A stretch of 26,494 nucleotides of DNA from a virus (taxonomy: Duplodnaviria > Heunggongvirae > Uroviricota > Caudoviricetes). The DNA is taken from the IMG/VR virus record IMGVR_UViG_3300045988_034764; one strand, given 5' to 3'. The notes under the pieces were generated by a model. It was given only the letters and a program-made list of their open reading frames with translations, was not told the origin of the DNA and made no database searches. This document shows positions 158-17,083 of the stretch, in pieces; position 1 is the first letter of the stretch, and the number at the start of each line of letters is the position of its first letter. Made by a program: the position numbers and the translations under genes.

Positions 158-160
158 GCT

Positions 161-1764: not shown

Positions 1765-1788
1765 GTTAACTTAAACAGGAGACGAAAA

Positions 1789-1947
1789 ATGAAATTAGCA
1801 AAAAGAATTACCGTAAATACTAATTTAAGTTCGAAAAACGGAGACAAACGTAAGTTCCGCCGTAAAATGCGCCAGATTGTTAAACTAGACTACATTTTTG
1901 AAGAAACGATTGCACTAGCCGCAAACGCTGCCCGTAACTGGGGGTGA
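1789..1947 (+). CDS. Small basic protein (52 aa), first gene of the modification cassette
   Basis: In-frame ATG with AGGAG SD 7 nt upstream; lysine/arginine-rich; stop 4 nt before next gene. Confidence 0.45.
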   Translation: MKLAKRITVNTNLSSKNGDKRKFRRKMRQIVKLDYIFEETIALAANAARNWG

Positions 1948-1951
1948 TAAG

Positions 1952-2416
1952 ATGATGTATGCAATTTACGTAGCGGCGATATGCGCCGCTAACTTTTCGG
2001 TAACTGTGTTTGGTCCGTGGGCGACACCGGTAAACGCCTTTCTACTTATTGGGCTTGATTTCGTAATAAGAGATAAGTTGCACGAGAGGATTGGTGTACA
2101 AAAAATATTCATACTGATACTAGTAACTGGCATTATAAGTTTCTCCATAAACCCGGCAACCGGCAAGATTGCTATGGCAAGCGTTGTTGCCTTCGCTTTT
2201 GCAGCCGCCATAGATGCCGTTGTCTACCAGGCACTGATCAATAAAAAGTGGTTGGTTAAGTCAAACGTAAGTAATACAGCGGCCTCGGCGGTGGACTCTT
2301 TTATTTTCCCACTAATAGCTTTCGGGGCCTTCATGCCGCTAGTCGTACTGGGCCAATTCGTGGCTAAGGTTTTTGGCGGAGCTTTATGGTCGTTCTTGCT
2401 GAGGAAAATTAAATGA
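1952..2416 (+). CDS. Polytopic membrane protein, YhhQ / COG1738-like (queuosine-precursor transporter family)
   Basis: 154 aa with about 4 hydrophobic helices; motifs recalled from memory as YhhQ-like (D-x-x-x-R, NVS-x-T...FIFPLIAF); GGGGGTGA SD; ATGA overlap with DpdA-like gene. Confidence 0.45.
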   Translation: MMYAIYVAAICAANFSVTVFGPWATPVNAFLLIGLDFVIRDKLHERIGVQKIFILILVTGIISFSINPATGKIAMASVVAFAFAAAIDAVVYQALINKKWLVKSNVSNTAASAVDSFIFPLIAFGAFMPLVVLGQFVAKVFGGALWSFLLRKIK

Positions 2417-3147
2417 CAGTGCATTACCACGGAGGCCCTATTTGGGGTGGGGATGAGCTTATAGAAGCATTGTACCGAGGTGGTGGTGCTCTGGTATCAT
2501 ACGCCCGCCCCGATCAAATACGAAAGATAGCCGCCACGAGATGTAAATTAGTGTTGGACAACGGAGCTTTTTCGACGTGGAAGAAAGCACCGGACAACAT
2601 AGACTGGAGCGCCCACTGGGCAGGATATTATGATTTTGTCGGAGAGTGGTTCAGTCGTATTGAGTGGTTCATAATACCGGACGTTATAGAGGGCACGGAG
2701 GAAGAGAACGACGCATTAATAGAAACTGTCCCCGATTGGTTAAGGTCTAAGGCGGTCCCGGTGTGGCACAGCGATGAAAGTATAAGAAGACTGGTAAAAC
2801 TGTGCCGTGGGTTCAATCGGGTAGCGATAGGTTGCTGCGGACCGCACAGGGCCATACGGTCTAAGTCATGGGGGAAAAGAATGGACCAGGCATTTAATGC
2901 GGTTTATAGAAACAGGAAATTGGATGTAAAACTCCACGGCCTTAGAATGCTGGATGGGCGGGCCTTGAGCCGCTACCCTTTCGACAGCGCTGACAGCACA
3001 AACGTAGCTATAAATGTGCCGAAAACTAAGGCAAGACTACCTGACATAACGGACAAACTGCATCGAACTGCCATAATGAGGCATACCATAGAGATGGTTA
3101 AACCCCCTACAGTAGAGGAATGGCTACTTAAAACTAAGGCCCCATAA
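2413..3147 (+). CDS. dpdA: DpdA-like tRNA-guanine transglycosylase paralog (7-deazaguanine DNA transglycosylase candidate)
   Basis: 244 aa; TGT-like motifs LDNGAF (compare DSGGFQ) and FDSADST (compare FDCVxPT); no zinc-binding subdomain, as in short phage DpdA; coupled to the YhhQ-like gene. Confidence 0.5.
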   Translation: MTVHYHGGPIWGGDELIEALYRGGGALVSYARPDQIRKIAATRCKLVLDNGAFSTWKKAPDNIDWSAHWAGYYDFVGEWFSRIEWFIIPDVIEGTEEENDALIETVPDWLRSKAVPVWHSDESIRRLVKLCRGFNRVAIGCCGPHRAIRSKSWGKRMDQAFNAVYRNRKLDVKLHGLRMLDGRALSRYPFDSADSTNVAINVPKTKARLPDITDKLHRTAIMRHTIEMVKPPTVEEWLLKTKAP

Positions 3148-3159
3148 CGGGGCCTTTTT
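3136..3159. terminator. Intrinsic terminator at the end of the modification cassette (possibly bidirectional)
   Basis: AAGGCCCC-ATAAC-GGGGCCTT hairpin spanning the DpdA stop codon, followed by TTTTT; portal gene ends at 3162 on the other strand. Confidence 0.55.
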
Positions 3160-3161
3160 CG

Positions 3162-4631
3162 CTACTCCTGTTGCTGTGCCGACTGCGGAATCTCCCCCTC
3201 CACCTGAGTAACAGCACCTAACGGCAGTGGTGCATCCTCGATTGCGTTCTGAATGTCCTCGTCCGTCCAGTCAGTTACGCCAGCCTTACGCAATGCTGCA
3301 TAGTAAGCAGTGGCGGGCAGCAAACCGGCATTAATGTCTGCCATCCACTGCGCACGGTCATGGGCGGTCATCGGTTGCAAGAAGAACTCCATATTCAGCT
3401 TGAACTCAATCTCTGTGCCTTCACGCAGCCCTAGCATCGCAGCCACCCAGCGCAACGCATCGGTGTACGCCATGCTTACGTTCCGCGCGATTGTCGCCAT
3501 AACTGACGTATCCGCACCGCGTTGCAGTCTGGCCGATTCAGCGGTGATTTGCTGCGTCGGGGTGATAAGCTGCGCACCAATCTGGATAGCCTGATTCTCT
3601 TTATCCAGCATGTTCTGCTTAGCGAGGTTGTTCTCCCCCGCCTGAACCAGAAACGCATTGCCGCCGTAACCAATGTTGTGGCCTGAACGCGACCCCATAC
3701 GCACGCCGTGAGGGTTGGCTTCTTTCCACTGTTCCATGCTCATGTTCTCGCCCGGCGCAATGAACAAAGTAGGCTGGCCTACCACGAAGCTGGACTCTTC
3801 ATTGTCTGCGCTGTTACGGAAATGCCCGATATTAAGCTCAGCCAACGGCAGCAAAGGTGCATCGTCAATTGTTGCATCGTTGTTGCTCGCACCAATGAAC
3901 GTAAATGGGATTTTACCGCGCAACTGTTCGCCCAGTTCCGGGAATATTTCGATTACTTCGTCCTGAGCGCCGCCTTCGGCATCGAAGCGGTAAATGCGCT
4001 GGCGGTAGCGACCGTCAATCAGGTCAAGGACGCGGTATTGCTCGCCAAACTTGGTTTCGAACTCCGCACCCGGTTCTGAGTATTCCCATGCCTCACGCAG
4101 CACGACCATAGTCACACGGTTCACTGAACCTACGCGTGTCAGTCGCCAGTTGATGATGTTCTCTGCGGTATAGAATGCGATGACCGGGTTTAATAACCCT
4201 GCGTTCTGTTCGGCTGCCGTCGCGGCGGCGGTCTCTGGGGCATCAACCAGCAACCCGCCACGACCTACCGAGTCAATCTCCATCAGCGTATCCTGCGCGT
4301 GCTGCCACAGCCCGACACCGGAACCGTCAGCATTACGTAGCAGGTACTCCATCTCAGGCGGAATAATCTGTTCGGGGTCTTTGCGCATGACGCTACCGAC
4401 CATCCCCGCCAGGGTACGTTTAGTGAAGTTGTAGCAGATAGCGCCGTTCTCGTATTCTTCCTGGCGCTGCGCTGCGTAGGTTGGGTCTGGCTCGTTCTTC
4501 CCGACGTTGCGAAGATAGCGGATAAGGTCGCCTTCCAGCGCGTGTCGCACCTTCTGCCATTTATCGAAGTGATGCAGCCATTCCCGGTGTTTTGTCTTAA
4601 CACCCTGATTCTGACCGTTCATAGTTAACAT
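3162..4631 (-). CDS. Portal protein
   Basis: 489 aa ORF between terminase large subunit and head morphogenesis gene; AAGAGGA SD; size and position typical of a portal. Confidence 0.6.
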   Translation of the reverse strand: MLTMNGQNQGVKTKHREWLHHFDKWQKVRHALEGDLIRYLRNVGKNEPDPTYAAQRQEEYENGAICYNFTKRTLAGMVGSVMRKDPEQIIPPEMEYLLRNADGSGVGLWQHAQDTLMEIDSVGRGGLLVDAPETAAATAAEQNAGLLNPVIAFYTAENIINWRLTRVGSVNRVTMVVLREAWEYSEPGAEFETKFGEQYRVLDLIDGRYRQRIYRFDAEGGAQDEVIEIFPELGEQLRGKIPFTFIGASNNDATIDDAPLLPLAELNIGHFRNSADNEESSFVVGQPTLFIAPGENMSMEQWKEANPHGVRMGSRSGHNIGYGGNAFLVQAGENNLAKQNMLDKENQAIQIGAQLITPTQQITAESARLQRGADTSVMATIARNVSMAYTDALRWVAAMLGLREGTEIEFKLNMEFFLQPMTAHDRAQWMADINAGLLPATAYYAALRKAGVTDWTDEDIQNAIEDAPLPLGAVTQVEGEIPQSAQQQE

Positions 4632-4675
4632 TGAGTAGTCCTCTTAGAGTGCGTTAGTGCGCACTGTTGCCGCGT

Positions 4676-4900
4676 TTATGCCTTCTTAATCCAATTATTG
4701 TAAACGCCAAGCCCCCAGCTATAGGCGTAGAAAAGGCACAGCACAAGAATACCCCATTGCTGGTTTACTATCGCGCTATAAATCCAGAAAGGCTGCCCAG
4801 CAATTCCAAACAAACAAGCGAATCTCTTCCACTTCTGGTTGGATTGCTGGGTAAGGAAGATGGCTATTACGCCAGTGAAAGCTATAGCTAGTTGGTCCAT
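4676..4900 (-). CDS. Small integral membrane protein (hypothetical)
   Basis: 74 aa, 2-3 hydrophobic helices; between terminase and portal; TGAGGA SD. Confidence 0.5.
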   Translation of the reverse strand: MDQLAIAFTGVIAIFLTQQSNQKWKRFACLFGIAGQPFWIYSAIVNQQWGILVLCLFYAYSWGLGVYNNWIKKA

Positions 4901-4906
4901 AAATCC

Positions 4907-6157
4907 TCACAGAGAAAAAGTAACGGGGATGTTGATTACTGGTTTAACCACCGGCATCTCGTAAACTACAGGATAGCCGAGAGCATCCGCCATATGGTCG
5001 ATGATGCCGTCTTTATCTGGCTCTCCGTTATCGTCATATGCCTGCTGCTCCAGCGTCTTCGCTATCTCGGGGCATAAGTGGTCGTTAACCCACAGCTTAC
5101 CTTTTTCCAGCGCGGTATTCACGGCTAAAACACGGTCTTTAACCGGGGGGTTGGCGGATTTAGCGCGAACATCGAACCCGGCCTGCTGGAGTAACGCGAT
5201 ATCAGAGATTGACGCTGAGTTGGTTTTGCGGTTCTTGCCGCTGGCGTCGGGGTAAACGACGATGCGGTGGCCTTGCGATTTCCACTTCTCGGTAATGACG
5301 CGCACAGTATCCGGCGTATCGAACAGACCTTTCAGTTCTGCCACCGCGTGCCAGCCGTCTTTACGCTGCACATACACGGCGCTCGCGTTCTTCGTAACGT
5401 TGAAGTCCTGCCCGATGTACAGCGTGTCGCCCGGTTGAATAGTCTCTTTGCTGCGGTGCTTGCGACGGTCATACGCGTAATACACGCTGCCGGATGTCAG
5501 GTTAACGAACTCGCCGTTCAGATACGCGTTAATCAACTGTGCCGGGTAAGTCTCCGTCAGCGAGCTAATGTAATCCGGCGGCAGGAATCTCGCATTCTCA
5601 TGAGTTGATGCCTGCACCATTGAGTAACTCGGCGTCGGGTTCTCTTTGAACTTGGCGTAGACGAACTTGAACCCTTCCGGCGTCGTGGTGACGGAGATGT
5701 GGTTGGTTACGCCAGGAATAACCAGACGCATACGGGCTACGATTTTGTTCCACGCCAGCTCAGCTTTCTCGCGACTCAATACGTCGAGCTCATCCACGAC
5801 CGCGGCGGCGATTTTGAAGCCGACGATAGAGCCAGGGTTATCCATCGAACGGCAGATAACCGTACCGAGCACCGTCTTACCGCGAGTGACAACGACCTCT
5901 TTGTCGCCGGATTTAACCAGCACATCAAGGCCGAGCAGGTTAGCCGCTTCCTCGAATGTCGGGTAGAAGATGTCGCGGATGGCCGGGTACGTCGGCCCGA
6001 AGTAGCCCAGGCGCGCACCTGGGTGCTTGAGCATGAATGTAAGCAGGTCCAGACAGCCAACAAATGTCTTGCCGCTGCCGAATCCCCCGACATAGGCTTT
6101 GTATTTGTTATCGCAATTCAGGAACAGTGCCTGCGGGGCGGATAGCTGAATACTCAT
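4907..6157 (-). CDS. terL: Terminase large subunit
   Basis: 416 aa; Walker A GGFGSGKT, Walker B VVDELD; ATGA overlap with upstream small-subunit gene. Confidence 0.85.
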   Translation of the reverse strand: MSIQLSAPQALFLNCDNKYKAYVGGFGSGKTFVGCLDLLTFMLKHPGARLGYFGPTYPAIRDIFYPTFEEAANLLGLDVLVKSGDKEVVVTRGKTVLGTVICRSMDNPGSIVGFKIAAAVVDELDVLSREKAELAWNKIVARMRLVIPGVTNHISVTTTPEGFKFVYAKFKENPTPSYSMVQASTHENARFLPPDYISSLTETYPAQLINAYLNGEFVNLTSGSVYYAYDRRKHRSKETIQPGDTLYIGQDFNVTKNASAVYVQRKDGWHAVAELKGLFDTPDTVRVITEKWKSQGHRIVVYPDASGKNRKTNSASISDIALLQQAGFDVRAKSANPPVKDRVLAVNTALEKGKLWVNDHLCPEIAKTLEQQAYDDNGEPDKDGIIDHMADALGYPVVYEMPVVKPVINIPVTFSL

Positions 6158-6699
6158 TCCTCTACCTCGCCCATGTTCGTTGTTACGATTTTACCCACAG
6201 GCTCCGCGACACTGAAAATAATCTCAGTCGGTGCTGTTTCTTCTGTTGATTCAACTGGTTTCTCTTTGCTGAGGCCCAGCTTCGCCGCAGCAAACGTAGC
6301 AGAGATACCTGCGGCCCCGGTCTCGGTGAAGTACGCCTCTTCCAGCGCCTGTGCGGTCTCCCAGGCTTCTGCAAATGCGGGAATCTCACGCAGCCACAGC
6401 TTAATAATCGGGATAGTTACGCCGATGTGTAAGGCGAAGCGGGCCAGTGACGGGGGTTTATCCTGAATAAGTGGACGTTCGTCGCCCTTAGACGTAGGCA
6501 CAAGCTCCCATGACGTGCGGTCGAAGAACTCGATTAGCGCGTCGCAATAGTCCGGGTCCCACAACGCGGCGGAATTACGGGATGATTGATAAAGGCTCTG
6601 TTTACCGCGTGGTCGTTTACGGCGACGGTTTGCGCTAACAGCTTCTTCATGTGCAGCTTGCACCACCTCTGGCGATGGCTGCTTAAGTTTCAGCTTCAT
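6154..6699 (-). CDS. Terminase small subunit (putative)
   Basis: Start moved to in-frame ATG with AAGGGGA SD (181 aa); immediately upstream of and overlapping terL; basic N-terminus. Confidence 0.5.
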   Translation of the reverse strand: MKLKLKQPSPEVVQAAHEEAVSANRRRKRPRGKQSLYQSSRNSAALWDPDYCDALIEFFDRTSWELVPTSKGDERPLIQDKPPSLARFALHIGVTIPIIKLWLREIPAFAEAWETAQALEEAYFTETGAAGISATFAAAKLGLSKEKPVESTEETAPTEIIFSVAEPVGKIVTTNMGEVEE

Positions 6700-6716
6700 A
6701 GAATCCCCTTGCATAT

Positions 6717-6757
6717 GCGTCTGACCATCAGAGCGCATCAGACGCGCCCTACGCGTC
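6717..6757 (-). repeat. Nested palindromes and direct repeats in the leader of the terminase operon
   Basis: GCGTCTGA...TCAGACGC and GACGCG-ccctа-CGCGTC inverted repeats plus CATCAGA direct repeat, about 20-60 nt upstream of the small terminase start. Confidence 0.35.
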
Positions 6758-6797
6758 TAAAGGGATTATATAAGGGGATTGGGCGGGATGTACAGAA

Positions 6798-6817
6798 AAG
6801 CCCTCCGTAGAGGGCTT
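6798..6817 (-). terminator. Putative intrinsic terminator separating the small-gene array from the terminase operon
   Basis: 8-bp GC-rich stem with 4-nt loop; on the minus strand followed by TTTTCTGT. Confidence 0.35.
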
Positions 6818-6922
6818 GTATCAGTTATATAGGCCGTGTCGTGGTGCTCTTTTGCCGTCGCCGCTGTAGTGGTCGTTAGCTACCGCGATTGCCCAGGCGT
6901 TAGGGATGATTAACAGTTTCAT

Positions 6923-7111
6923 TTAACCCAGCCCCAGAATCCCTACCCTTTCAACCCTAAGGTATATTTGAGGGGCCTTCTGTTTGGCCTTCGCTATAGC
7001 TTTTTCTGCTTCTTCCTTAGAGAAGAATATAGCTTTGAGTGTATCATAATCTTTATTGGTAACGGACACGATACCACCAGAGGCATCGACTACGGCATAA
7101 AATTCGTTCAT
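6923..7111 (-). CDS. Hypothetical protein (62 aa)
   Basis: ORF with GGGGAGAG SD; ATGA overlap with upstream gene. Confidence 0.5.
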   Translation of the reverse strand: MNEFYAVVDASGGIVSVTNKDYDTLKAIFFSKEEAEKAIAKAKQKAPQIYLRVERVGILGLG

Positions 7112-7344
7112 TCCCCGCTCTCCCCTTTAGCAATGCGTTGTTCAGTTTTAGTGATACCCCGGCGCGTGAATAGCACTGGGCTTGTCTTAACGTGCGTCAT
7201 GAGACGGTTGTTATAAATTACATGGCGCTCACAGTTAACGTCTTTGCTGTACTTCGCAATCGTCATTTCGTTGATGCCGGTTTGTCGGCATGTCTCCGCC
7301 ATCGTGCCGTATTCTTTAATCAGGTTCGGAATGCTGGTAATCAT
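7108..7344 (-). CDS. Hypothetical protein with possible helix-turn-helix (78 aa)
   Basis: Start moved to in-frame ATG with GAGGA SD; segment AETCRQTGINEMTIAKY resembles an HTH. Confidence 0.45.
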   Translation of the reverse strand: MITSIPNLIKEYGTMAETCRQTGINEMTIAKYSKDVNCERHVIYNNRLMTHVKTSPVLFTRRGITKTEQRIAKGESGE

Positions 7345-7511
7345 CCTAAGAAATTCCTCGTTGTCCACATCGCATTCGGATATTTGTTATCGCGGTCCTG
7401 CACTACGGCAATCATGTTACCGCGTTGCACCAGGCAGAAGTGGCGCTGTTGCTCACCGTTGTAGCGGCGCCATATTGCCTCTTCGATTGCTGCGTTGGTG
7501 TCATTGAACAT
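7341..7511 (-). CDS. Hypothetical small protein (56 aa), not in ORF track
   Basis: ATG 2 nt after upstream stop; own stop overlaps next start (ATGA); fills the gap in a tightly packed gene train. Confidence 0.35.
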   Translation of the reverse strand: MFNDTNAAIEEAIWRRYNGEQQRHFCLVQRGNMIAVVQDRDNKYPNAMWTTRNFLG

Positions 7512-7513
7512 AC

Positions 7514-7696
7514 TCACCCCACTATCTCATCACCAAGCCACGCCGTTTCTCGTATATCGTCTACCACACAAGCGGCGTGCTCTCGGCTAATCGCAAAAAT
7601 GTAGAAGCTAAACTTCTTCCCGTCGGCGTCGATGTGGTTAACCGAGTATGGTTTCCACAGGACGCCGTCAATTACTACTGGTTCAGGCGCTTTCAT
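7514..7696 (-). CDS. Hypothetical protein (60 aa)
   Basis: Track ORF with start moved to first ATG (track start is TTG); stop-start junction TAAacATG with upstream gene. Confidence 0.45.
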   Translation of the reverse strand: MKAPEPVVIDGVLWKPYSVNHIDADGKKFSFYIFAISREHAACVVDDIRETAWLGDEIVG

Positions 7697-7698
7697 GT

Positions 7699-7884
7699 TT
7701 AGTATTGCCAGAGGTCTTGCAAGGAATGCGCCCAATCTTCCTCATCCTTCATGCGCTCAAGTAGCATCTTAAACGCTTCCAGTTGAAACTCTCCGTTAAT
7801 CGACAGTCGCCCGCCTAACGTCTGTTTCTCTGACTCAAGCACCGTAATACGGCGTTCGAGTGATGCGATTGTGATTTTAGGCAT
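7699..7884 (-). CDS. Hypothetical coiled-coil protein (61 aa)
   Basis: Start moved to ATG with AGGGTGA SD (track start is GTG). Confidence 0.5.
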   Translation of the reverse strand: MPKITIASLERRITVLESEKQTLGGRLSINGEFQLEAFKMLLERMKDEEDWAHSLQDLWQY

Positions 7885-8050
7885 TGGCGTCACCCTTGTT
7901 CAGGTTGAATCGGTTAATTAGCTCGCGGCGGTGCTCTTGCCACTCTGCGAGTTGTTTTTCCAGGTGTTCGATCATCTCGTCCGCGCCTTTAAGCCACGCT
8001 TGCCCGGTCGCCGCTTCTACGCTAAGTTTCTCGTATTCGTTGTTAGTCAT
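7877..8050 (-). CDS. Hypothetical small protein (57 aa), not in ORF track
   Basis: ATG with GGGGGAG SD; overlaps neighbours on both sides by 8 nt; plus-strand track ORFs here are antisense. Confidence 0.35.
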   Translation of the reverse strand: MTNNEYEKLSVEAATGQAWLKGADEMIEHLEKQLAEWQEHRRELINRFNLNKGDANA

Positions 8051-8204
8051 TCTTTACGCTCCCCCACATGCGATTTAGATACTTGTTCTTGTCCGGCCCC
8101 GGGAAACTGTTGCGTTTCATCAGTTCCTCGCGTGTCGGGAACGGGGTATGACTGACTTTACGGCCTACCCGTAATGGCTGGCTTGCTGGACCTTGTTCAC
8201 TCAT
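8043..8204 (-). CDS. Hypothetical protein (53 aa)
   Basis: Start moved to ATG with AGGAGA SD; ATGA overlap with upstream gene. Confidence 0.4.
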   Translation of the reverse strand: MSEQGPASQPLRVGRKVSHTPFPTREELMKRNSFPGPDKNKYLNRMWGSVKND

Positions 8205-8395
8205 TTCTTCTCTCCTGCGAGTTCCATATTGAATACAATACGAACGTTTTCCAGGGGCGTAGTACCTACTAGCTTTGCCGCGTAAGCCCCCGCATCTCCA
8301 GATTGGTGAAACTGGCCGCAATCAACATACTCATCCCCGTTGAAAAAAGAAACAACGAAACAACCTTTACCAACTTCCGTAACTATATTTTTCAT
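8201..8395 (-). CDS. Hypothetical protein (64 aa)
   Basis: ATG with AGGAGA SD; ATGA overlap with upstream gene. Confidence 0.5.
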   Translation of the reverse strand: MKNIVTEVGKGCFVVSFFNGDEYVDCGQFHQSGDAGAYAAKLVGTTPLENVRIVFNMELAGEKK

Positions 8396-8541
8396 TTCTT
8401 CTCTCCTGCATAAGCTGCTTTAAGTGTCTGCATCGCGGCGAACCAGAACGCGGCCGCTGGGATGCTGTTGCTAAGGTTACTGACGGCGATGCGGGCCATC
8501 AGTTGTGCATCTTTGAATGCTTCGACATCTGTGATTTTCAT
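8392..8541 (-). CDS. Hypothetical small protein (49 aa), not in ORF track
   Basis: ATG with GGAG SD; stop overlaps next start; first gene after a minus-strand promoter. Confidence 0.35.
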   Translation of the reverse strand: MKITDVEAFKDAQLMARIAVSNLSNSIPAAAFWFAAMQTLKAAYAGEKK

Positions 8542-8574
8542 CTTCTCTACTCCGTTCTCGTTGTCGATGGAGTA

Positions 8575-8603
8575 AATATAATTGGTGTAAGAGTAATAGT
8601 CAA
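8575..8603 (-). promoter_or_regulatory. sigma70-like promoter for the small-gene array
   Basis: On minus strand TTGACT (8598-8603), 17-bp spacer, TATATT (8575-8580); about 30 nt upstream of the first ORF. Confidence 0.4.
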
Positions 8604-8624
8604 CTAGTCATAGCAGAAAATAGA

Positions 8625-8657
8625 TAAAAAAAATCCCGGCTGGGTCAGGGCCGGGAT
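8625..8657 (-). terminator. Intrinsic terminator after the lysis cassette
   Basis: 8-bp stem ATCCCGGC/GCCGGGAT with 9-nt loop, followed on the minus strand by T8. Confidence 0.6.
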
Positions 8658-8721
8658 AAAACTGGAGAGTAGAGGGATGGAACAGGAGGTGATTTAAGTA
8701 TCGTCGGATTAGTCTTAGGTG

Positions 8722-9210
8722 TCAACCTTTCACCGTGCGCCCAATAGCCTCTGCCTCTTGCCACGGCTTACCGTCGAACAACGCCAGACGACCCGCAGTA
8801 CGGCGACGCAGACCGAGTAGTGGTTTGCCGTTCTGGTTGATGAACAACGCCAGCTTAGCACGCAGCGTCGCAATATCACCGGAACGCAGGGCCTTGCCAG
8901 TGCCGGTAGTAACTGCAATCACGCCAGCACCAGCGTTATAGACCAGGTCGCATACTGCATCGAACTGCGCCTGTGTCAAGGAGTGGTGCGCTGCAGCGTC
9001 AACCGCAGCTACGGCTTTAGCCATATCACGATTCAGTAATAGGAGGCCTTGCCCGGGAGTGATGGTCTTACCTGGGGTTACGTCCGGTCCGTAATGACCG
9101 TAACCAATAGTCAGGTACTTCTCGTTCGGGGTAGCGCGGTACGCGGTTCTACGGAATCCCTCGAACGCGGCGGTGAAATGCAACCCATTATCTGAAATGT
9201 TTCGAGACAC
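8722..9210 (-). CDS. Endolysin, GH24 phage lysozyme family
   Basis: Motif pattern FEGFRRTAYRATPNEKYLTIGYGH typical of T4/P22-type lysozymes; start moved to GTG with GGAGGA SD 8 nt upstream (track start is TTG). Confidence 0.8.
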   Translation of the reverse strand: MSRNISDNGLHFTAAFEGFRRTAYRATPNEKYLTIGYGHYGPDVTPGKTITPGQGLLLLNRDMAKAVAAVDAAAHHSLTQAQFDAVCDLVYNAGAGVIAVTTGTGKALRSGDIATLRAKLALFINQNGKPLLGLRRRTAGRLALFDGKPWQEAEAIGRTVKG

Positions 9211-9460
9211 GCTTATGTCCTCCGTATGACAGCCACGCCTGACGAATCTGACGCAGCGCAACTAATGTGATTAATGTCTCAGGCAGCGTAGGCGACATGC
9301 TGCCCTGTAGCAGGTGGATACATCCGGCGGCGCAGACGATAGCGGTCAGGATATAGAGCACCCGACCAAATAGTCCGTCATCCACGCTGGGATGATATAC
9401 ATTAAACAGCGATGTGCCCCCTATTGCCAGCATACCGCCGAACCAGAATAACTCATTCAT
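9188..9460 (-). CDS. Lysis-associated membrane protein (holin/antiholin-like, 2 TM)
   Basis: Start moved to ATG with GAGGAGG SD; two hydrophobic helices; overlaps endolysin start by 23 nt. Confidence 0.5.
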   Translation of the reverse strand: MNELFWFGGMLAIGGTSLFNVYHPSVDDGLFGRVLYILTAIVCAAGCIHLLQGSMSPTLPETLITLVALRQIRQAWLSYGGHKRVSKHFR

Positions 9461-9761
9461 CTGGGCCTCCTCGACGTGGGATGTATTCTCCGGCGACGAT
9501 ACCGGAGAGACGGGAATAGATAGGCATCCAGAGAACCGCGATGATGAAGCCCAGGCCCGCGATTTCACGGTCGCCCGTGATACCGAACCATTGAGCCGCG
9601 AGAGGTGCGCCAAATACGGCGCAGGTGAAGCCAGTTGCAATAAAGCAGAAGCCGTCGATAGGGCCAGAAATAACGGACTTATGTTGTCGTAGTCCGATGA
9701 CCCCTCCGGCGAGTGCGGCAGCGAGAAGCCAGCCTGTCACTGTTTCAGTAAATTTATCCAA
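9453..9761 (-). CDS. Holin-like membrane protein (about 3 TM)
   Basis: 102 aa; TTG start with GGAGGA SD 6 nt upstream; hydrophobic helices and charged C-terminus; immediately upstream of the lysis genes. Confidence 0.5.
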   Translation of the reverse strand: MDKFTETVTGWLLAAALAGGVIGLRQHKSVISGPIDGFCFIATGFTCAVFGAPLAAQWFGITGDREIAGLGFIIAVLWMPIYSRLSGIVAGEYIPRRGGPDE

Positions 9762-9820
9762 GATGAATCCTCCAGGTGCGTATTAAGTATGCAGTAACTG
9801 GAGGATACCACGGGTAGGAA

Positions 9821-10261
9821 TTATCCTAATAGTTGTTTGGTAATAATCTTGCCGCCGGTGTTAGTGTCAAACTTCGATGCAACGGCTACACCGCCATGTG
9901 CTGAATATTCACATTCCATGGCCGCCAGTGCGTAGGGAGAACCGGAACCAACGGCGGCAAAGCTATCGGCAATCGGAATAACCGAACTAAGTGCGCAATC
10001 CCACGATTTATAAAACGAGACTTTATACACCTTTTCTGTGTCTTTCACGAATACCAGAGCTTCGAAATCAAAATCATAGTGCTTTGCCTGAAGAATATCA
10101 GGGCAATCGATAAGCATAGCCCCTACCCCCGCATCGCCCGCTACCCCGATAACAGCAAAATCATTCTCATATATCTTTGTGTCTGTGTTGTAACAGTTAC
10201 TTCCGCACACAACACGTGTATCGCAGGCCATTGTCTTTCCATCAAACGCGATTGTAGTCAT
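9821..10261 (-). CDS. HslV-like / proteasome beta-type Ntn-hydrolase peptidase
   Basis: 146 aa; N-terminal MTTIAF (Thr nucleophile after Met removal) and VGSGSPYALAAM resembling HslV IGSGGPYAQAAA; GGAGG SD. Confidence 0.6.
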   Translation of the reverse strand: MTTIAFDGKTMACDTRVVCGSNCYNTDTKIYENDFAVIGVAGDAGVGAMLIDCPDILQAKHYDFDFEALVFVKDTEKVYKVSFYKSWDCALSSVIPIADSFAAVGSGSPYALAAMECEYSAHGGVAVASKFDTNTGGKIITKQLLG

Positions 10262-10551
10262 TTGTGCCTCCAGATGTATTGGCGTCTCTGCGGTTTCGTC
10301 GGAATATCATCGTATCCCAGCGATTTCCAGTAATTAAATAGCCGATTAGCGATAGCGGCGCGTTCCTGTGTTTTAAACTCACCGAGATTAACGGCCTTCC
10401 CGTTCTGGAATCCGCAGTCGCGGACAGCTTTACGTCTGGCCTGAATCTCAGGGTACAGCGCGTTACCCCGACGCTTGTATATCTGTGTTTTAGCTCTCGG
10501 TGACAGCGGCACAAGGCCGCTACGTTTCAGGATGTCAGTTGCAAGGCTCAT
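10258..10551 (-). CDS. Hypothetical basic protein (97 aa)
   Basis: ATG with AGGAGA SD; ATGA overlap with HslV-like gene. Confidence 0.5.
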   Translation of the reverse strand: MSLATDILKRSGLVPLSPRAKTQIYKRRGNALYPEIQARRKAVRDCGFQNGKAVNLGEFKTQERAAIANRLFNYWKSLGYDDIPTKPQRRQYIWRHK

Positions 10552-10769
10552 CACTTCTCCTGTTTACCAAGTCGCTTAGGTGAGCAGATAGCTCGTACCT
10601 CTGAATCGTTGGGCTTGTCACCCTGAAACAGGAAGTGCGCGTTCTCTGCGGCGCGTGCCGCTGACTGGCACGCCTCCATCGAGTAAAACGTTTCTGCTGC
10701 CGCTAGTTGCATCTGACCCGCGGACAGCACCCAGATAAATAAGATGCTGGTCATCTCTTTAGCCCGCAT
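10551..10769 (-). CDS. Small secreted protein (signal-peptide-like N-terminus)
   Basis: 72 aa; positive n-region, hydrophobic core, AAA-E cleavage-like site; alternative start at 10754. Confidence 0.45.
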   Translation of the reverse strand: MRAKEMTSILFIWVLSAGQMQLAAAETFYSMEACQSAARAAENAHFLFQGDKPNDSEVRAICSPKRLGKQEK

Positions 10770-11374
10770 TTAATGCACATACGTGGAAACCCGACTCCGT
10801 AAAATTGCCATTCGTGTTCACACTCTGGCTTGACTACACGGTAGCGGGTAATGTCACCACGCCATCCGCGATGGTCCCAGCGCAGCTCCCCCGCTACTCC
10901 AGGTTCACATGCACTGGTCCCGTCACGCATCCTGATTTGTACAATAGTATCTTTCGGCACCGGACACTCACCACCTTCCCACTTAACCCACGGTTCCGTG
11001 ATATGCGCATCCTCTTTACGGCAGCCAGATCGCTCGGGGACAAGCGCACCCTTGCGCGCAAGTTTGTACGCCTCTGCATCACCGGTAGCGGTAGCCAGTC
11101 GTTTTACCAGGTCATCAACTTGCGCTTGAAAGCGCAACGCGTCATTACGATATGCGGACGATTGCCCGGTCATATGTGATATGTGCTCGGATTTCCTAAT
11201 GTTGTCTTCCTGCAACTCCTTAATCTGCGCCGACGCATCACGTAACTGATTCTTAAGTGACAGCACCTCATGCGCCAGGTCTTCGCACTGTTGCTTGTGC
11301 ACCTTACGTTCGTCCAGTGTTAGGTGCATTGCCGCTACCAAGTACTCGAATACTTCGTTTTTGTTACTCATCAT
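10751..11374 (-). CDS. Coiled-coil protein with Cys-rich C-terminal domain (hypothetical)
   Basis: 207 aa from ATG (track start is TTG at 11377); N-terminal heptad-like region; C-terminal C-x-H...C-x2-C cluster. Confidence 0.55.
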   Translation of the reverse strand: MMSNKNEVFEYLVAAMHLTLDERKVHKQQCEDLAHEVLSLKNQLRDASAQIKELQEDNIRKSEHISHMTGQSSAYRNDALRFQAQVDDLVKRLATATGDAEAYKLARKGALVPERSGCRKEDAHITEPWVKWEGGECPVPKDTIVQIRMRDGTSACEPGVAGELRWDHRGWRGDITRYRVVKPECEHEWQFYGVGFPRMCIKCGLKR

Positions 11375-11483
11375 CAACCCCCATTGTTATCGCTTTAGTG
11401 TCGCCGTCGCACACAGAAGTGCTACCCATTATTTCGTAAGCATCTACCAGTTCGCCTAAGGTCCAGCTACCGTACCAACCCAT
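11364..11483 (-). CDS. Hypothetical small protein (39 aa), not in ORF track
   Basis: ATG with AGGAGA SD about 30 nt downstream of a promoter copy; coordinates approximate. Confidence 0.3.
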   Translation of the reverse strand: MGWYGSWTLGELVDAYEIMGSTSVCDGDTKAITMGVDDE

Positions 11484-11509
11484 CTTCTGTCTCTCCTCTC
11501 GTTTGTGTA

Positions 11510-11545
11510 AATGAATAGTAGCCTATTCTATTTTAGTGTGCAAGT
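11510..11545 (-). promoter_or_regulatory. sigma70-like promoter with operator motif (copy A)
   Basis: On minus strand TTGCAC, 17-bp spacer, TACTAT; core TGAATAGTAGCCTATTCTA; positions approximate (+/- 3 nt). Confidence 0.4.
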
Positions 11546-11550
11546 AAATT

Positions 11551-11724
11551 TTATCGGTGTGTTATAGAGTCGATGAACGCCAGTAACTCGCGCTCCGCTT
11601 CTGCTTCTCTTTCCTCAAGCGACCAGGTAGCGGATTCCTCTGTTGCCGTCGCTAAATCTGTTTTTACATCAATCATCGTATCTATTAACGCGATTAGTCG
11701 TTCAGCCTGTTCTTTAGTAATCAT
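11551..11724 (-). CDS. Hypothetical acidic small protein (57 aa), not in ORF track
   Basis: ATG with GGGAGA SD; preferred over the overlapping low-complexity plus-strand ORF 11573-11785 because all neighbours are minus-strand. Confidence 0.35.
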   Translation of the reverse strand: MITKEQAERLIALIDTMIDVKTDLATATEESATWSLEEREAEAERELLAFIDSITHR

Positions 11725-11848
11725 TGTTGCATCTCCCGCAATAGTCGCTTCGATTGTTGCGTTTGGTGAAATAGAACAAAAATGAGAAAAATGATACGCT
11801 GCTGTGTAGCAGCGTAAGTCACTCAGTAAAATCCCAAACTATTGAACA

Positions 11849-12052
11849 TCACACTTCCGGCGGCCCAGGTAACGGCATCCAGTGGGAAAACACTTCCTGC
11901 TCTAATTCCCCGTAGTCAGCACGGAAATCACACCAAGTTACCCCATCCCACTCGTACACATTGTTCTGGACCACACCACCCATACTACTGACGACCAAAA
12001 CTGGTTGGCCCGGCTCCGGCATCCGCTCACTACACTTAATCCACTCTCCCAT
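11849..12052 (-). CDS. DUF551-like phage protein
   Basis: 67 aa; pattern WIKCSERMPEPGQPVLV...HWMPLPGPP typical of DUF551 proteins. Confidence 0.6.
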   Translation of the reverse strand: MGEWIKCSERMPEPGQPVLVVSSMGGVVQNNVYEWDGVTWCDFRADYGELEQEVFSHWMPLPGPPEV

Positions 12053-12055
12053 ATC

Positions 12056-12199
12056 TCACCTCTGATTCGCGATAAACAACACACCAGCTTTCCACGCCCG
12101 CCACGCGAGACGCGTCTTAACGTTCAGGTACTCTTTCTTCGAACCCTTGTTAACCGGCAGACCCTCAACGACGGCCCATCGTTCGAATGCTTCTCTCAT
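12056..12199 (-). CDS. Hypothetical small protein (47 aa), not in ORF track
   Basis: Exactly fills the gap between two flanking genes in frame with an ATG; weak SD. Confidence 0.3.
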   Translation of the reverse strand: MREAFERWAVVEGLPVNKGSKKEYLNVKTRLAWRAWKAGVLFIANQR

Positions 12200-12202
12200 A
12201 CC

Positions 12203-12451
12203 TTAGTCCTCATCGTCGTTCTCTCTTCCTAGATATGAAAGAGATGTAATCGCGGCAGCGGTAAATCCATCACAATCAATCATACGTTTAAGTTTCTCCG
12301 CATCCTCCTGCGATTTTATTCGGAAACATAGTTGTGCTACCCCCGCCACCGAAGACCTGCCACCCTCTGATACGGCGTTATAGTGATAAACATATATATA
12401 TATTTCATACCAACCCCCAAAACGCGCGCACCACATAGACGTCACTGACAA
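12203..12451 (-). CDS. Hypothetical protein (82 aa; start uncertain)
   Basis: Track ORF with TTG start; contains a (TA)n microsatellite translated as YEIYIYVY; coding status uncertain. Confidence 0.3.
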   Translation of the reverse strand: MSVTSMWCARFGGWYEIYIYVYHYNAVSEGGRSSVAGVAQLCFRIKSQEDAEKLKRMIDCDGFTAAAITSLSYLGRENDDED

Positions 12452-12462
12452 TTAAAATAAAC

Positions 12463-12756
12463 TTATCCACGGCAACCTCCCTCAGAGTCGTCGGCACTGG
12501 CATCATGATTCGATGCCGTTCGCATAAACAGCTTACCTTTGCGCTGTAACAAATCCATCGTCACCGCACCAGCCCCTGACTTATTAGGGCGGCGCATTAG
12601 ACTAAAATTCCACACCCTGGCCTTTGTTACATCCCGGGCGTTACACACCCACAAAGCACCATTTTCTCTCAGGTCCAGCAAATCAGAAATGTTTAAATTA
12701 TTTACCGGGATAAACCCACTAATGAACTGGCGTTCGCATTGCGGTAATTCTTCCAT
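12463..12756 (-). CDS. Hypothetical protein (97 aa)
   Basis: ATG one codon after the track GTG start; first sizeable gene downstream of promoter copy B. Confidence 0.5.
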   Translation of the reverse strand: MEELPQCERQFISGFIPVNNLNISDLLDLRENGALWVCNARDVTKARVWNFSLMRRPNKSGAGAVTMDLLQRKGKLFMRTASNHDASADDSEGGCRG

Positions 12757-12972
12757 CACTTCGCCCCTTTGAATTTAAAATTGTTGCCGATGAGTTTTAT
12801 CCCGTCCTCCCGGACCCATAAATCGAAACACCATTCTGGATGCGCGAGATAGCATAACCCAGGAACTTAATTCGAAACTCGTTTAATTATTGCGTAATGT
12901 CCGCCGCGTTTCGTTTTCACCAACTGACCCTTCTTAAACATAACCCTCACTCCTCTGTCTCGTTTCGATAAG

Positions 12973-13006
12973 TGAATAGTATCCTATTATATTGGGGTGT
13001 GCAAGA
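12973..13006 (-). promoter_or_regulatory. sigma70-like promoter with operator motif (copy B)
   Basis: On minus strand TTGCAC (12999-13004), 17-bp spacer, TACTAT (12976-12981); core TGAATAGTATCCTATTATA at 12973-12991. Confidence 0.45.
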
Positions 13007-13362
13007 GAATAGTTACGTTGCCGTTGTGATTCTTTCGTTTCTTAAAAGAGTACGCAACGCAGTGGGTGGGCGTTAGCCCACCCCAGCGGAGTGAAGTACT
13101 CTCTACCTTGTTTACGGCAATTATAGAAACTTTTAATTATCAGTGACTTGGGTATTTAGGCGGGATTAACAATAGACTTTGGCCCTTCCGAAAGCGCCAG
13201 CGGAACTACACTCAAGTGCCTAATGGCACGCGTTGCGTTCCCTGCCGCTCCGCGGTCGCTTGCGATATCTCACAAGCTCAGTGAAGCTTAGCATATTTTT
13301 AAGTAAAAGTCAATACCAGTAGCATCTTTTGTATCTTAGTAACTTTGTGTGGCGTTTTGGTT

Positions 13363-13391
13363 GCTTTTACATTCCCGCTATCCTATACTCA
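13363..13391 (+). promoter_or_regulatory. sigma70-like promoter for the plus-strand replication module
   Basis: TTGCTT, 17-bp spacer, TATACT, about 30 nt upstream of the ATG at 13421. Confidence 0.4.
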
Positions 13392-13420
13392 GCTTCACCA
13401 AACAAACAGGAGATATAAAA

Positions 13421-13603
13421 ATGCAGCATTACATGACCCAGAATGAAGTAGCAGAACGTATCGGGGTGACCCGTCAGACAATTAATAACTGGTTGCGCAG
13501 TGGTAAATTCCCGGATTGCTGTATTAAGGTTATGGGCCGCCGTTTACCGGGTACATTTGACCGTAATAAAGTTGAAGCGTGGATTAAGGAGAACGTGAAA
13601 TGA
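13421..13603 (+). CDS. AlpA/excisionase-type helix-turn-helix DNA-binding protein
   Basis: Start moved to ATG with AGGAG SD (track start lies inside the promoter); MTQNEVAERIGVTRQTINNWLRSGKFP matches the AlpA-family HTH pattern. Confidence 0.7.
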   Translation: MQHYMTQNEVAERIGVTRQTINNWLRSGKFPDCCIKVMGRRLPGTFDRNKVEAWIKENVK

Positions 13604-13890
13604 AAGGTGTAATATTCCATGATAAAGAGAACGACAATTCTTATATGGTCTATTTAGTGCAAGGCAAGTACGCGTTGTGTTTTAACGTTTCTTGTAAGCT
13701 GGACTCTTATTCGCCGTTTTGCGTTACAGAAGAATTGCAGTTGATTAGTCTCCGAAGACTCAGCACAATGTCGGCCTCCATTGATGTCTCTGACCACTTA
13801 TCGTACGTTTATCAGTATTTCGGCGATGAGATTGTCGTAGATTATTATCGTAAGTACGCACATTTGATGGAATGCCTGGCCAATAGATAA
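13600..13890 (+). CDS. Hypothetical protein (96 aa)
   Basis: ATGA overlap with upstream gene; no recognisable motif. Confidence 0.55.
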   Translation: MKGVIFHDKENDNSYMVYLVQGKYALCFNVSCKLDSYSPFCVTEELQLISLRRLSTMSASIDVSDHLSYVYQYFGDEIVVDYYRKYAHLMECLANR

Positions 13891-13948
13891 AAGAAAGCCC
13901 CGACGCGTGAACGCCGAGGCCAAATTACTTGCTGAAGGAATATACAAT

Positions 13949-16216
13949 ATGTCCGATGTGATTTTATCCTACTCGTGGTCCCGTCGCAACGCGCGGGCGG
14001 AGAAAAAGGATATAAACGTCAGAACCACACACACGGCAACACTGGACGACCTGAAAGGGTTAATCCAGCCGCTCGATGCTGTTCGCGGCGGGATTAACCC
14101 TAAGACCGCGCCTGGCTATATCACGGCCGCGTGCGACTCGACGCACAGCACCGTAAAAGACCCGGAAACAGGCGACTTTAAGCAAGCGCGTAAAGGCTTC
14201 TTCTACCGCTGCGACGCGTCTGTAAGCAAATCGTCGCTTGCCTATCTGGACTTTGACAGTGCAACGCCAGAGGAGTATCAGGAAGCTGTGCGCCTGGTTA
14301 AGCGCAGCCGCCGGGCAATGTGCATTTACACCACGGCATCACATACCGACGAGTCACCGCGCTTTCGCGTCGTCATGCCTCTGGGCCGCCCGGTCGAAGG
14401 TGGTGACATCATCCGTGTTCGTCATGGATTGCTGGAACACTTCTTCAAGGGCATGGGTGCTGACCGCAGTGGGTTCACCCTGTCGCAGCCGATGTACCTG
14501 CCACCGGTTGGCTCTACGGTTATCTGGTCTCGCCGCAACGACCTGATTGACCCGTACGAGTTGCTTGAAGGTATCCCCGCCGTCGACGTTAGCAGCGCAT
14601 CCGACTACCAGATACCGGAAGAACTGCGCACTGCGTTTACTGATGCGTTCGAGGCACTGGCCTTCGAGTATGGCGGTGTCATGACGCCACGCGGCCTGAA
14701 GATGCCCGCTACACCAGAACACGCCGAAAACTACAGCGACCCTACCCCGCGCCCGGACGACTTCCTGCTGTGCTTCCCGCGAGAGGGGTACGAAGCGCCA
14801 AACGTGACCATGATTCACGACACCGACATTACGGCGACCGAAGGCATGTCGCCGAAAGAGGTGTGGAAATACGCTTGCGATGCGACCGGGATGCCATTCA
14901 GTGAAGTCGCAGAGGCCATCGGTTGGGGTGCGCGAGAATCTGTTTCATGCAGCCTGGACGACCTGGAAGACGATGAGGACTCAGAGGAGGACGAGTTACC
15001 GGAACCGGTAAAGGCGGATTTCGTCGTTGAAGGGTACATGCCGTCAGATTGTATCTGGGATATTGTCGGGGAATCTGGCACGTACAAATCGTTCTATACG
15101 CTGGGGATGATGTACCTGAGCGCCGCCGGATACCGGTTTGCGGGGGCGGATACTCAGCGCTGCCACCATTTCTATATCGACGGTGAGGGCGGCGCAGCCA
15201 CACGTACGCGTATTGATGCACTAGCGGCTAAATATGGTGAGGAAGGTAAAGATTATGTACATGTCATCGACATGGGCGAAGTCGGAAAACTGAAAAGCCT
15301 TATTAAGTTGATGCGTGAAACTGCTGGTGACGAACCCATCGGTATGGTCGCGTTTGATACCCTTAACCAGACGCTGGCGCTGACGATTGATAAGTTCGAC
15401 GAGAACAGTTCATCAACGGCAATCGGCATGGGTAAAGTTATCGCCATCCTGAAAGAAGTACGTGACGCGACTAAAGCTGCAGTGGGCGTCGTCCACCACA
15501 CACCGAAGGGTGGAAAGAAAGCCCGCGGCAGTGGGGCGCTGTATGCGGGCGTCGACGTGGAACTGACAATTGAACGCGCTACCGACCGTCAGATAAACGT
15601 ATACCACTCTAAATTCAAACACGGCCCACAACAAAAAACTGTCGGCATGGTGCTTGAGTCGGTACAGTTCCGTGAAGCGCCACCCCCGAAAGAGTACCGC
15701 GCGGTTGAGTTCCTGGGTAGCACAGAGGAATACGGCACAATCGTTAACCTGGACCTGCCTGAGCCGCACAAGGCGCTTGTTCTGATGCCGTGGGGTTTCG
15801 AGCCGTTCAAAACTGACGAGGAGAAAGAGCGCGAAGAAGGTCTGACAAAGGAAGGTAAAGAAAACGTACGTAAAACCGTAGAGAACGCTGTCAACAGTTC
15901 AGAGGCCACGATACTCGCAGCGTTCGAACTGGCGGAAGGAACCTACAACGGCAACGAAGGCATCACGGTAGCCGCAGCGAATAAGCTGGCACAGTCTGAC
16001 CCCAACGCAAAGGCGTTTAACTCCAAAGAAGCCATAGAACGCGGGAAGATTAAGAAAATGGTTGAGGCCGGGTATCTTGTTCCGGGGACTGACGAAAACA
16101 ATCAGATAATACCAGGCCGTTACAGACTGAATACCCGAATAACTGATAACAAGATTCCTAAGACAATATACGAACCGAATGAAATGCTGACAGTGACAGA
16201 GGAAGATTTGGAATAG
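13949..16216 (+). CDS. DNA primase / helicase (primase-polymerase-like N-terminus fused to RecA-like ATPase)
   Basis: Start moved to ATG with GAAGGA SD (track start is GTG at 13907); N-terminal LDFD AEP-like motif; Walker A GESGTYKS, Walker B VAFDTL. Confidence 0.7.
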   Translation: MSDVILSYSWSRRNARAEKKDINVRTTHTATLDDLKGLIQPLDAVRGGINPKTAPGYITAACDSTHSTVKDPETGDFKQARKGFFYRCDASVSKSSLAYLDFDSATPEEYQEAVRLVKRSRRAMCIYTTASHTDESPRFRVVMPLGRPVEGGDIIRVRHGLLEHFFKGMGADRSGFTLSQPMYLPPVGSTVIWSRRNDLIDPYELLEGIPAVDVSSASDYQIPEELRTAFTDAFEALAFEYGGVMTPRGLKMPATPEHAENYSDPTPRPDDFLLCFPREGYEAPNVTMIHDTDITATEGMSPKEVWKYACDATGMPFSEVAEAIGWGARESVSCSLDDLEDDEDSEEDELPEPVKADFVVEGYMPSDCIWDIVGESGTYKSFYTLGMMYLSAAGYRFAGADTQRCHHFYIDGEGGAATRTRIDALAAKYGEEGKDYVHVIDMGEVGKLKSLIKLMRETAGDEPIGMVAFDTLNQTLALTIDKFDENSSSTAIGMGKVIAILKEVRDATKAAVGVVHHTPKGGKKARGSGALYAGVDVELTIERATDRQINVYHSKFKHGPQQKTVGMVLESVQFREAPPPKEYRAVEFLGSTEEYGTIVNLDLPEPHKALVLMPWGFEPFKTDEEKEREEGLTKEGKENVRKTVENAVNSSEATILAAFELAEGTYNGNEGITVAAANKLAQSDPNAKAFNSKEAIERGKIKKMVEAGYLVPGTDENNQIIPGRYRLNTRITDNKIPKTIYEPNEMLTVTEEDLE

Positions 16217-16250
16217 GTAAAAAAAAAAAGGGGGGGGGGCGTTAAGCCCC
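16217..16250 (-). terminator. Homopolymer-containing terminator between convergent genes
   Basis: A11 (16219-16229) then G10 (16230-16239); on the minus strand GGGGC-loop-GCCCC followed by C-run and T11, directly after the XRE gene stop. Confidence 0.4.
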
Positions 16251-16457
16251 TTCACCGAACGCCAGCCACTTGGCGTCTACTTCCAGCACTTCCGCCAGTT
16301 TAAACAGCGTCGCCGGGCGGACGTCCTGAGTTACGCCGAGCGCAAGCTGGTTAATCGCACCCTGGGAAACGCCGGCCAGAACAGCCAGACGGCGCTGTGA
16401 GATGCCGAGTTCTTTACGGCGTTGTTCTACACGGATGCCTAGTTCAGATGGTTGCAT
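16242..16457 (-). CDS. XRE-family (Cro/CI-type) helix-turn-helix transcriptional regulator
   Basis: 71 aa; ELGISQRRLAVLAGVSQGAINQLALG is a classic XRE HTH; AAGGAG SD; antisense to surrounding genes. Confidence 0.75.
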   Translation of the reverse strand: MQPSELGIRVEQRRKELGISQRRLAVLAGVSQGAINQLALGVTQDVRPATLFKLAEVLEVDAKWLAFGEGA

Positions 16458-16484
16458 GTCAATTACTCCTTAGTTAGTTGATAT

Positions 16485-16552
16485 GTGAATAGTACCATAT
16501 TAATTATTTTAGAAAAGCCCATTGACATCGTGAATAGTTAGCTATTATAGTT
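16485..16552. promoter_or_regulatory. Divergent promoter/operator switch region (copies D and E of the motif)
   Basis: Plus strand: TTGACA (16522-16527) + 17-18 bp + TTATAG/TATAGT with TGAATAGTTAGCTATTATA in the spacer; minus strand: TACTAT -10 (16489-16494) facing the XRE gene. Confidence 0.5.
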
Positions 16553-16582
16553 AGCCCATACCAAACGAGAGGAGAGAAACAA

Positions 16583-17083
16583 ATGTTAGAGAAATTCTTA
16601 GCATTACTGGAACGTTTCGTAGTTGCTCATGAACTGATTGCTGCGAACAGCGCGAAACAAGTTGTTCAGGTTTCCGCGCCGCTGGAAGTAGAGACGGTAG
16701 CGTATGCCAAAGAAGCGGTAGCCGAGTGCGCTGAAGAAGAAACAAAAGAAATCCCGGTTGAAGGTGAAGACATCGTCGACACTAAACCGGCAGAAGAAGA
16801 GAAGCCGAAACGCAAGCCGCGGAAAGCTAAAGTAGAGGAACCAACACCGGAGCCGGAAGAAGAGAAGGAAGAAGTTGATTACCAGTCTCTGCGTGACCAG
16901 ATTCAGGCTATCGACGATGCGATTAACGAAGGTCCGAGCGATGCCGCGTGCGATGACTCCGATGAACTGCTGGAAGAGTTCACCGGTAAGAAAATGAAGA
17001 TTGCCGCGATTAAAGACGAAGACCTGGCTGAATACCTGAAACGCCTGACGGCAATCAAGAACAAGTATTTCGAAGAAGAATAA
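16583..17083 (+). CDS. Highly acidic protein (hypothetical; possible DNA mimic)
   Basis: 166 aa very rich in E/D with one basic patch KPKRKPRKAK; first gene after a strong promoter; GAGAGGAGAG SD. Confidence 0.55.
   Translation: MLEKFLALLERFVVAHELIAANSAKQVVQVSAPLEVETVAYAKEAVAECAEEETKEIPVEGEDIVDTKPAEEEKPKRKPRKAKVEEPTPEPEEEKEEVDYQSLRDQIQAIDDAINEGPSDAACDDSDELLEEFTGKKMKIAAIKDEDLAEYLKRLTAIKNKYFEEE

Follow-up and report, generated by a model that had tools for sequence, protein, structure and literature searches.

A probable lineage-specific, length-unstable homopolymer expansion in the predicted terminator of an XRE/cro-like gene of Guernseyvirinae phages

The tandem A11–G10 tract between the convergent helicase and XRE genes of this phage is, with good probability, a lineage-specific and length-unstable homopolymer expansion within a conserved Rho-independent terminator of the XRE/cro-like gene of Guernseyvirinae. 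The tract lies in what we call the window, the whole 26,494-nt stretch of DNA that was analysed. The window is Kagunavirus (Guernseyvirinae) phage DNA, with 90–95% identity to fFiEco02, fPoEco01, AV104, K1G/K1H/K1ind and others. Relatives carry a homologous short form at the same junction. The window allele is 8 nt longer than this short form (A5GA3 has become A11, and G4 has become G10), and the expansion recurs, at a slightly different length, in a second assembly. The features concerned are:

13949–16216, plus strand: replicative helicase(-primase) gene, 755 aa (ORF listing, start region; Pfam AAA_25)
16219–16229, plus-strand letters: A11 run, read on the minus strand as a T11/U11 tail; derived by expansion from the ancestral AAAAAGAAA, and A10 in scaffold_459, the second assembly
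16230–16235, plus-strand letters: six extra G, which on the minus strand set the stem apart from the U tract as a C6 spacer; found in no relative
16250–16236, minus strand: hairpin GGGGC-UUAAC-GCCCC (sequence; folds)
16253–16256, minus strand: GGUG just 5′ of the hairpin, the predicted partner of the extra C (ViennaRNA nascent-transcript folds)
16242–16457, minus strand: XRE/cro-like HTH regulator gene, 71 aa (translation; Pfam HTH_3, E 2e-12)

Read directly, the plus strand runs ...GGAA-TAG-GT-A11-G10-CG-TTA-AGCCCC-TTC..., which confirms the uninterrupted A11 and G10 described in an earlier, sequence-only reading of this DNA. Two bases (GT, 16217–16218) separate the TAG stop of the helicase gene (16214–16216) from the A run, which begins at the third base past the stop, as had been stated. 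The G10 run covers 16230–16239 and is followed by CG at 16240–16241. The TTA at 16242–16244 is the TAA stop of the 71-aa gene on the minus strand (16244–16242). The placement at 16217–16241 also holds, and this interval is the entire 25-nt intergenic spacer. The tract thus sits wholly between two stop codons, in neither a reading frame nor a promoter spacer. It is as unusual as had been claimed: the exact 21-mer occurs once in the 26,494 bases, where the only other homopolymer of at least 7 nt is an A8 at 8626. With up to 3 mismatches allowed, the 21-mer was matched in 0 of 100 dinucleotide-preserving shuffles of the window, and base composition predicts about 1e-8 occurrences per window. The tract is therefore far beyond chance.

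The flanks had been described as convergent primase-helicase and XRE genes. Both genes are as described, but Pfam detects no primase domain in the 755-aa protein, which matches AAA_25 (RepA-like helicase, E 2e-17); relatives annotate its homologue as replicative helicase/primase. In addition to HTH_3, the 71-aa protein matches HTH_19 and HTH_31, and its homologue is annotated in relatives as a transcriptional repressor or Cro. The XRE gene is the sole minus-strand gene within a long series of plus-strand genes, the next of which has a near-consensus sigma-70-like promoter at 16522–16551 (TTGACA-18-TATAGT).

Two further elements were observed around these genes. A GTGAATAGT-N3–5-(C)TATTAT motif occurs in three copies in the window, at 12972, 16485 and 16530. 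Two GTGAATAGT...CTATTAT copies lie in the divergent XRE/ORF166 control region and overlap the promoters around the XRE gene, and one of these two sits between the −35 and −10 elements of the promoter at 16522–16551. The motif matches the “phage promoter” consensus of the Kagunavirus fBC-Eco01, tgAATAGTa-ccTATTat-T (PMC9825357); in appearance it is closer to an operator of the XRE protein than to a phage promoter. A second terminator-like hairpin was called by the scan on the minus strand at 13896–13921. Of its 11 pairs, 7 are GC, and its TTCTTTTATC tail is of the same kind as at the XRE end; the hairpin sits a short way before the helicase start and faces the opposite way.

The homologous junction was read directly in about 65 relatives, drawn from GenBank isolates, IMG/VR (36 contigs) and the metagenome contigs of ENA and Logan. 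With few exceptions the Kagunavirus sequences read AAAAAGAAA-GGGGC-(GTTAA, ATTAA, TTTAA, GTCAA or TTAA)-GCCCC-TTC, and the relatives as a set carry AAAAAGAAA-GGGGC-N4–5-GCCCC or near variants of it at the homologous spot. On the XRE strand this becomes (AA)GGGGC-loop-GCCCC(UU) and then directly UUUCUUUUU, a 5–7 bp GC hairpin with a U3CU5 tail. The structure is conserved across the ~65 Kagunavirus sequences, with an almost invariant stem and a variable loop. The pairs are so nearly invariant that no clean compensatory stem changes occur within Kagunavirus, and the genus accordingly lends no true covariation support. Some 20 further single-piece GenBank matches have BLAST length differences of 8–10 nt, consistent with the short form. 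No Rfam family was found in 15800–16700 at E up to 1. The phage phiEap-2 was rejected as an informative relative; its gene order is different and its terminator unrelated.

In relatives the short form has the marks of a terminator. In fFiEco02, our scan makes a terminator-like call on the XRE strand, with 8 pairs and the tail CTTTTTACCT. In Schulenburg (MK931438.1, 34591–34614), the depositors annotate the 24 bases GGGGCTTAATGCCCCTTTCTTTTT as a terminator on the cro strand. Like the window hairpin, this element lies at the 3′ end of an XRE/cro gene facing the helicase, and it has a GGGGC/GCCCC stem, a stop codon in the loop and a T-rich tail. It differs in its loop (TTAAT, against TTAAC in the window), in an additional ORF between helicase and hairpin, and in the junction of stem and tail: TTTCTTTTT comes directly after the stem in this short form, whereas the window has six extra C and then an uninterrupted T11. 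Genome papers on Kagunavirus merely count predicted terminators.

The same arrangement is found in Jerseyvirus, where a GC hairpin with a T-rich tail ends the homologous repressor gene of, for example, the Salmonella phages Kenya-K47, SB3, dunkel and SETP13. That gene is also convergent with the helicase, and the AAAAAGAAA motif is kept on the helicase strand. The Jerseyvirus stem is 6–7 bp with a TGAT loop (GGGGCC-TGAT-GGCCCC; GGGGGTC...GGCCCCC in SETP13), and its run lengths vary modestly (C4–C5, T5–T8). Canonical Rho-independent terminators of E. coli and phages likewise place a GC stem-loop and then a U tract at the 3′ end of a gene, with host RNA polymerase as the presumed target, as here.

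In the window, the 5′ arm of the hairpin (16250–16246) is formed by the two codons that precede the XRE stop (GGG GCU), the loop (16245–16241) contains that UAA stop, and the 3′ arm (16240–16236) consists of C16240 and the final four G of G10. The XRE sense strand thus retains a GC-rich stem-loop within the usual range (at least 4–5 pairs, a loop of 3–8 nt) at the 3′ end of a transcription unit, overlapping the last two XRE codons and stop, with the next gene convergent. The claim that the tract supplies the C-run and T11 tail of a minus-strand hairpin holds in part: four G and C16240 are in the stem, but the other six G hold the core stem and T11 apart as a C6 spacer, whereas in relatives the stem runs directly into its tail. 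Stem-to-tail spacing matters for intrinsic termination. Canonical stem-to-U spacing is 0–2 nt, whereas the window allele combines a short 5-bp core stem with a 6-nt gap. Because the six extra C separate the core stem from T11, the scan that calls fFiEco02 calls no terminator in the window tract on the XRE strand. The earlier suggestion that the tract is the XRE terminator accordingly fits its element of origin, which is terminator-like in relatives, better than the window allele itself.

By ViennaRNA, the ancestral hairpin of 7 bp folds at −11.5 kcal/mol, the 5-bp core at −9.0 kcal/mol, and a “distal register” hairpin abutting the U tract at only −6.3 kcal/mol. In predicted folds of the nascent transcript, the extra C and the upstream GGUG form a composite stem, interrupted by an internal loop, whose end falls exactly at U11, for a gain of only about 2 kcal/mol.

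These structures suggest a mechanism for both forms. The ancestral XRE transcript would fold as (AA)GGGGC-UUAAC-GCCCC(UU), running straight into the U-rich tail, which would release host RNA polymerase after the hairpin. Release would prevent antisense transcription of the replication gene from XRE. A G-to-A change together with replication slippage would have converted A5GA3 to A10–11 and G4 to G9–10. The expanded tail would then be a perfect U11, now six extra C away from the core stem. These C would pair weakly with the upstream GGUG, leaving a composite stem that still ends at the U tract. The longer runs would now slip readily; between the two assemblies the count is one off in each run. 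On these models, termination in the window allele is probably retained with an altered, likely lower, efficiency. The allele may also terminate poorly or not at all, given the missing scan call and the small energy gain of the composite stem.

An exact-protein look-up located the helicase protein on two ENA contigs of one study. COST17-1_SAMEA4545300 scaffold_459 (44,652 bp) has 0 mismatches over 5,268 nt around the tract. Compared with window positions 1093–26494, it shows one SNP, a silent change at 20766 in the DNA polymerase gene, and a different tract, which reads A10G9. This is the only indel in the 25.4 kb, and it falls at the two longest homopolymers. COST17-1_SAMEA4545384 scaffold_424 (ENA ERZ28580146) begins at the window's first base, and the part of it that was compared (1–16157, which leaves off 62 nt before the tract) is 100% identical; scaffold_424 is 26,268 nt long, and the window is 226 nt longer. 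Judging from this identity, the window is probably another assembly of sample SAMEA4545384. A literature search on the sample accessions brought up no relevant paper. Within 870–1092, in a Mu F-like head morphogenesis gene, the window and scaffold_459 differ by 47 mismatches and 6 single-base indels in 223 nt, a cluster that points to recombination confined to this patch, or to two haplotypes side by side. Because this patch differs, the two assemblies are not one consensus copied twice.

These comparisons bear on whether the tract is real and how far its length can be read. Long homopolymers are known error sites, and the whole expansion could be a sequencing or assembly artefact in a phage that truly has the ordinary AAAAAGAAAGGGG. 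The expanded form is in no other relative, no Kagunavirus DNA with at least G5 at the hairpin was found in IMG/VR or metagenome contigs, and the run counts differ between the two assemblies. We nevertheless consider an artefact very unlikely. An artefact should be absent from independent assemblies of the same organism, yet scaffold_459, from a second sample, also has the expanded tract; assemblies from SAMEA4545300 and from the window (matching SAMEA4545384 scaffold_424 over 1–16157) both carry it, and such a recurrence speaks against an isolated artefact. On either side of the tract the sequence is perfectly collinear with relatives, neither gene end is damaged, the 223-nt patch distinguishes the two assemblies, and an 8-nt consensus over-call that includes a G-to-A change is typical of no platform. 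Both expanded-tract assemblies come from one study and one pipeline and may share a technical cause; even so, judging from the sequences, the tract taken as a whole is unlikely to be an assembly artefact. The expansion is reproducible across the two sequences, but the exact number of bases is either unstable or uncertain. The offset of one base in each run reflects either real slippage heterogeneity or homopolymer miscounting. That the expansion is real while the A10G9 versus A11G10 difference is a read or assembler miscount, not biology, is compatible with our main explanation, and we give it slightly less than an even chance. Short-read indel error climbs steeply at runs of ~10, and the sole indel in 25.4 kb of near-identical sequence lies exactly at such runs. 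However, runs of 9–11 also slip at high rates in replication, independently sequenced natural isolates vary in run length at the same site, and the two samples carry distinguishable haplotypes elsewhere. The second assembly, with this as its only length difference in 25.4 kb, bears out the earlier warning that the tract is prone to slippage and to sequencing or assembly error.

Our favoured explanation, a slippage-derived expansion of a conserved terminator, agrees with the variation seen at this site in other phages. A search of IMG/VR for an expanded tract (A8G7 plus the hairpin) found nothing, and 48 of 48 matches to G5 or longer beside the hairpin in IMG/VR and metagenome contigs were unrelated DNA. 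Smaller run changes occur in ULINTec2 (A7GA3), HSE2 (G5, in a record outside those two collections), an IMG/VR contig (A9GA3) and an ENA contig (A5GA4G3), and Jerseyvirus has T8 and T3CT7 tails and C5 arms. Across the subfamily the site is evidently slippage-prone at the sequence level, and the window is the extreme case.

Such instability invites comparison with the poly-G/poly-C contingency loci of Neisseria, Haemophilus and Campylobacter, which similarly have runs of 9–11 nt, and whose run lengths vary between near-identical genomes, as those of the tract may do. The tandem runs could, by analogy, act as a hypermutable contingency-type switch whose length tunes XRE read-through antisense to the replication gene. 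The run lengths are in the often-slipping range, the assembled length differs between two near-identical genomes, and the predicted fold changes with the C count. We judge this highly improbable, as long runs occur in only one lineage among about 65 and hence give no sign of selection for them. Unlike the runs at contingency loci, the tract occupies the inter-stop spacer, outside any coding frame or promoter spacer, and there is no evidence of on/off expression states for it. The two observed alleles are also nearly alike in predicted structure (−11.9 versus −12.1 kcal/mol). It is barely credible, in our estimate, that the A/G runs form a hypermutable terminator spacer in which slippage alters the stem-to-U distance and thereby tunes antisense XRE/cro read-through. 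If true, the balance of early genes would vary within the phage population in a heritable and reversible way. A less remote, though still unlikely, reading is that the terminator is bidirectional, also ending helicase-primase transcription on the plus strand and strengthened there by the G10 expansion. The genes converge, and the same hairpin is present in plus-strand RNA, where the window G10 pairs with CCCCUUC-CC in a 10-pair stem (the 71-nt segment has an MFE of −25.3 kcal/mol, z −2.0); the downstream plus-strand genes, moreover, have their own near-consensus promoter at 16522–16551. Yet the plus-strand stem is followed by UUCACCGAA and not by a U tract. The extended stem depends on G-U pairs and a bulge, and no plus-strand terminator is called in the window or in fFiEco02. 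A plus-strand terminator role is weakly supported at best, and we retain a terminator acting on the XRE strand as the preferred reading.

Several other candidates were tried and rejected. A contig junction or a genome end does not fit, since neither gene is truncated and the flanks line up with those of relatives. A G-quadruplex would need four G2 runs with loops, which is impossible from G10, and H-DNA was rejected because the tract is not a mirror repeat. Read-through of the helicase stop codon, or a frameshift extension, was likewise rejected: the downstream frame changes across the 13-, 19- and 21-nt versions of the tract, and the extension frame is therefore not conserved. A 118-aa minus-strand ORF that spans the tract (15899–16255) runs antisense inside the helicase gene and is unsupported.

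The helicase–XRE junction also differs between phages in gene content. Many relatives (14 junctions) have an extra small plus-strand ORF between helicase and hairpin. The versions are unrelated to each other and of several kinds, including ORFs of 65 and 104 aa, and the two tested had no Pfam match. In the relatives with the 65-aa or 104-aa ORF, the hairpin remains with the XRE end. From these sequences, accessory genes seem to insert preferentially at this junction.

The same region is also matched by CRISPR spacers. E. coli 2017.09.02CC (NZ_AP025214.2, 1108–1685) has a type I-E CRISPR array adjoining cas1e and cas2e, and two adjacent 32-nt spacers of this array match the phage at 100%. One matches 16262–16293 on the plus strand, in the 3′ part of the XRE gene, with ACG as the upstream bases. 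The other matches 16494–16525 on the minus strand, within the intergenic stretch that separates XRE from the 166-aa ORF; its PAM is ATG. Both matches lie less than 270 bp from the tract, and neighbouring spacers so placed look like primed adaptation against a Kagunavirus.

The element belongs to the textbook class of intrinsic terminators and is already annotated in a relative, and homopolymer slippage is likewise textbook. Nothing here is new in kind or hints at a new kind of element, and the tract is in that respect a minor curiosity. The main value of the finding lies in annotation and quality control: it marks a conserved predicted terminator site with an unusual expansion of uncertain length, and the base count here (A10–11, G9–10) should not be trusted for variant calling or strain typing. 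For the phage itself, the expansion may mean that the terminator of the window strain is weakened, as the predictions suggest.
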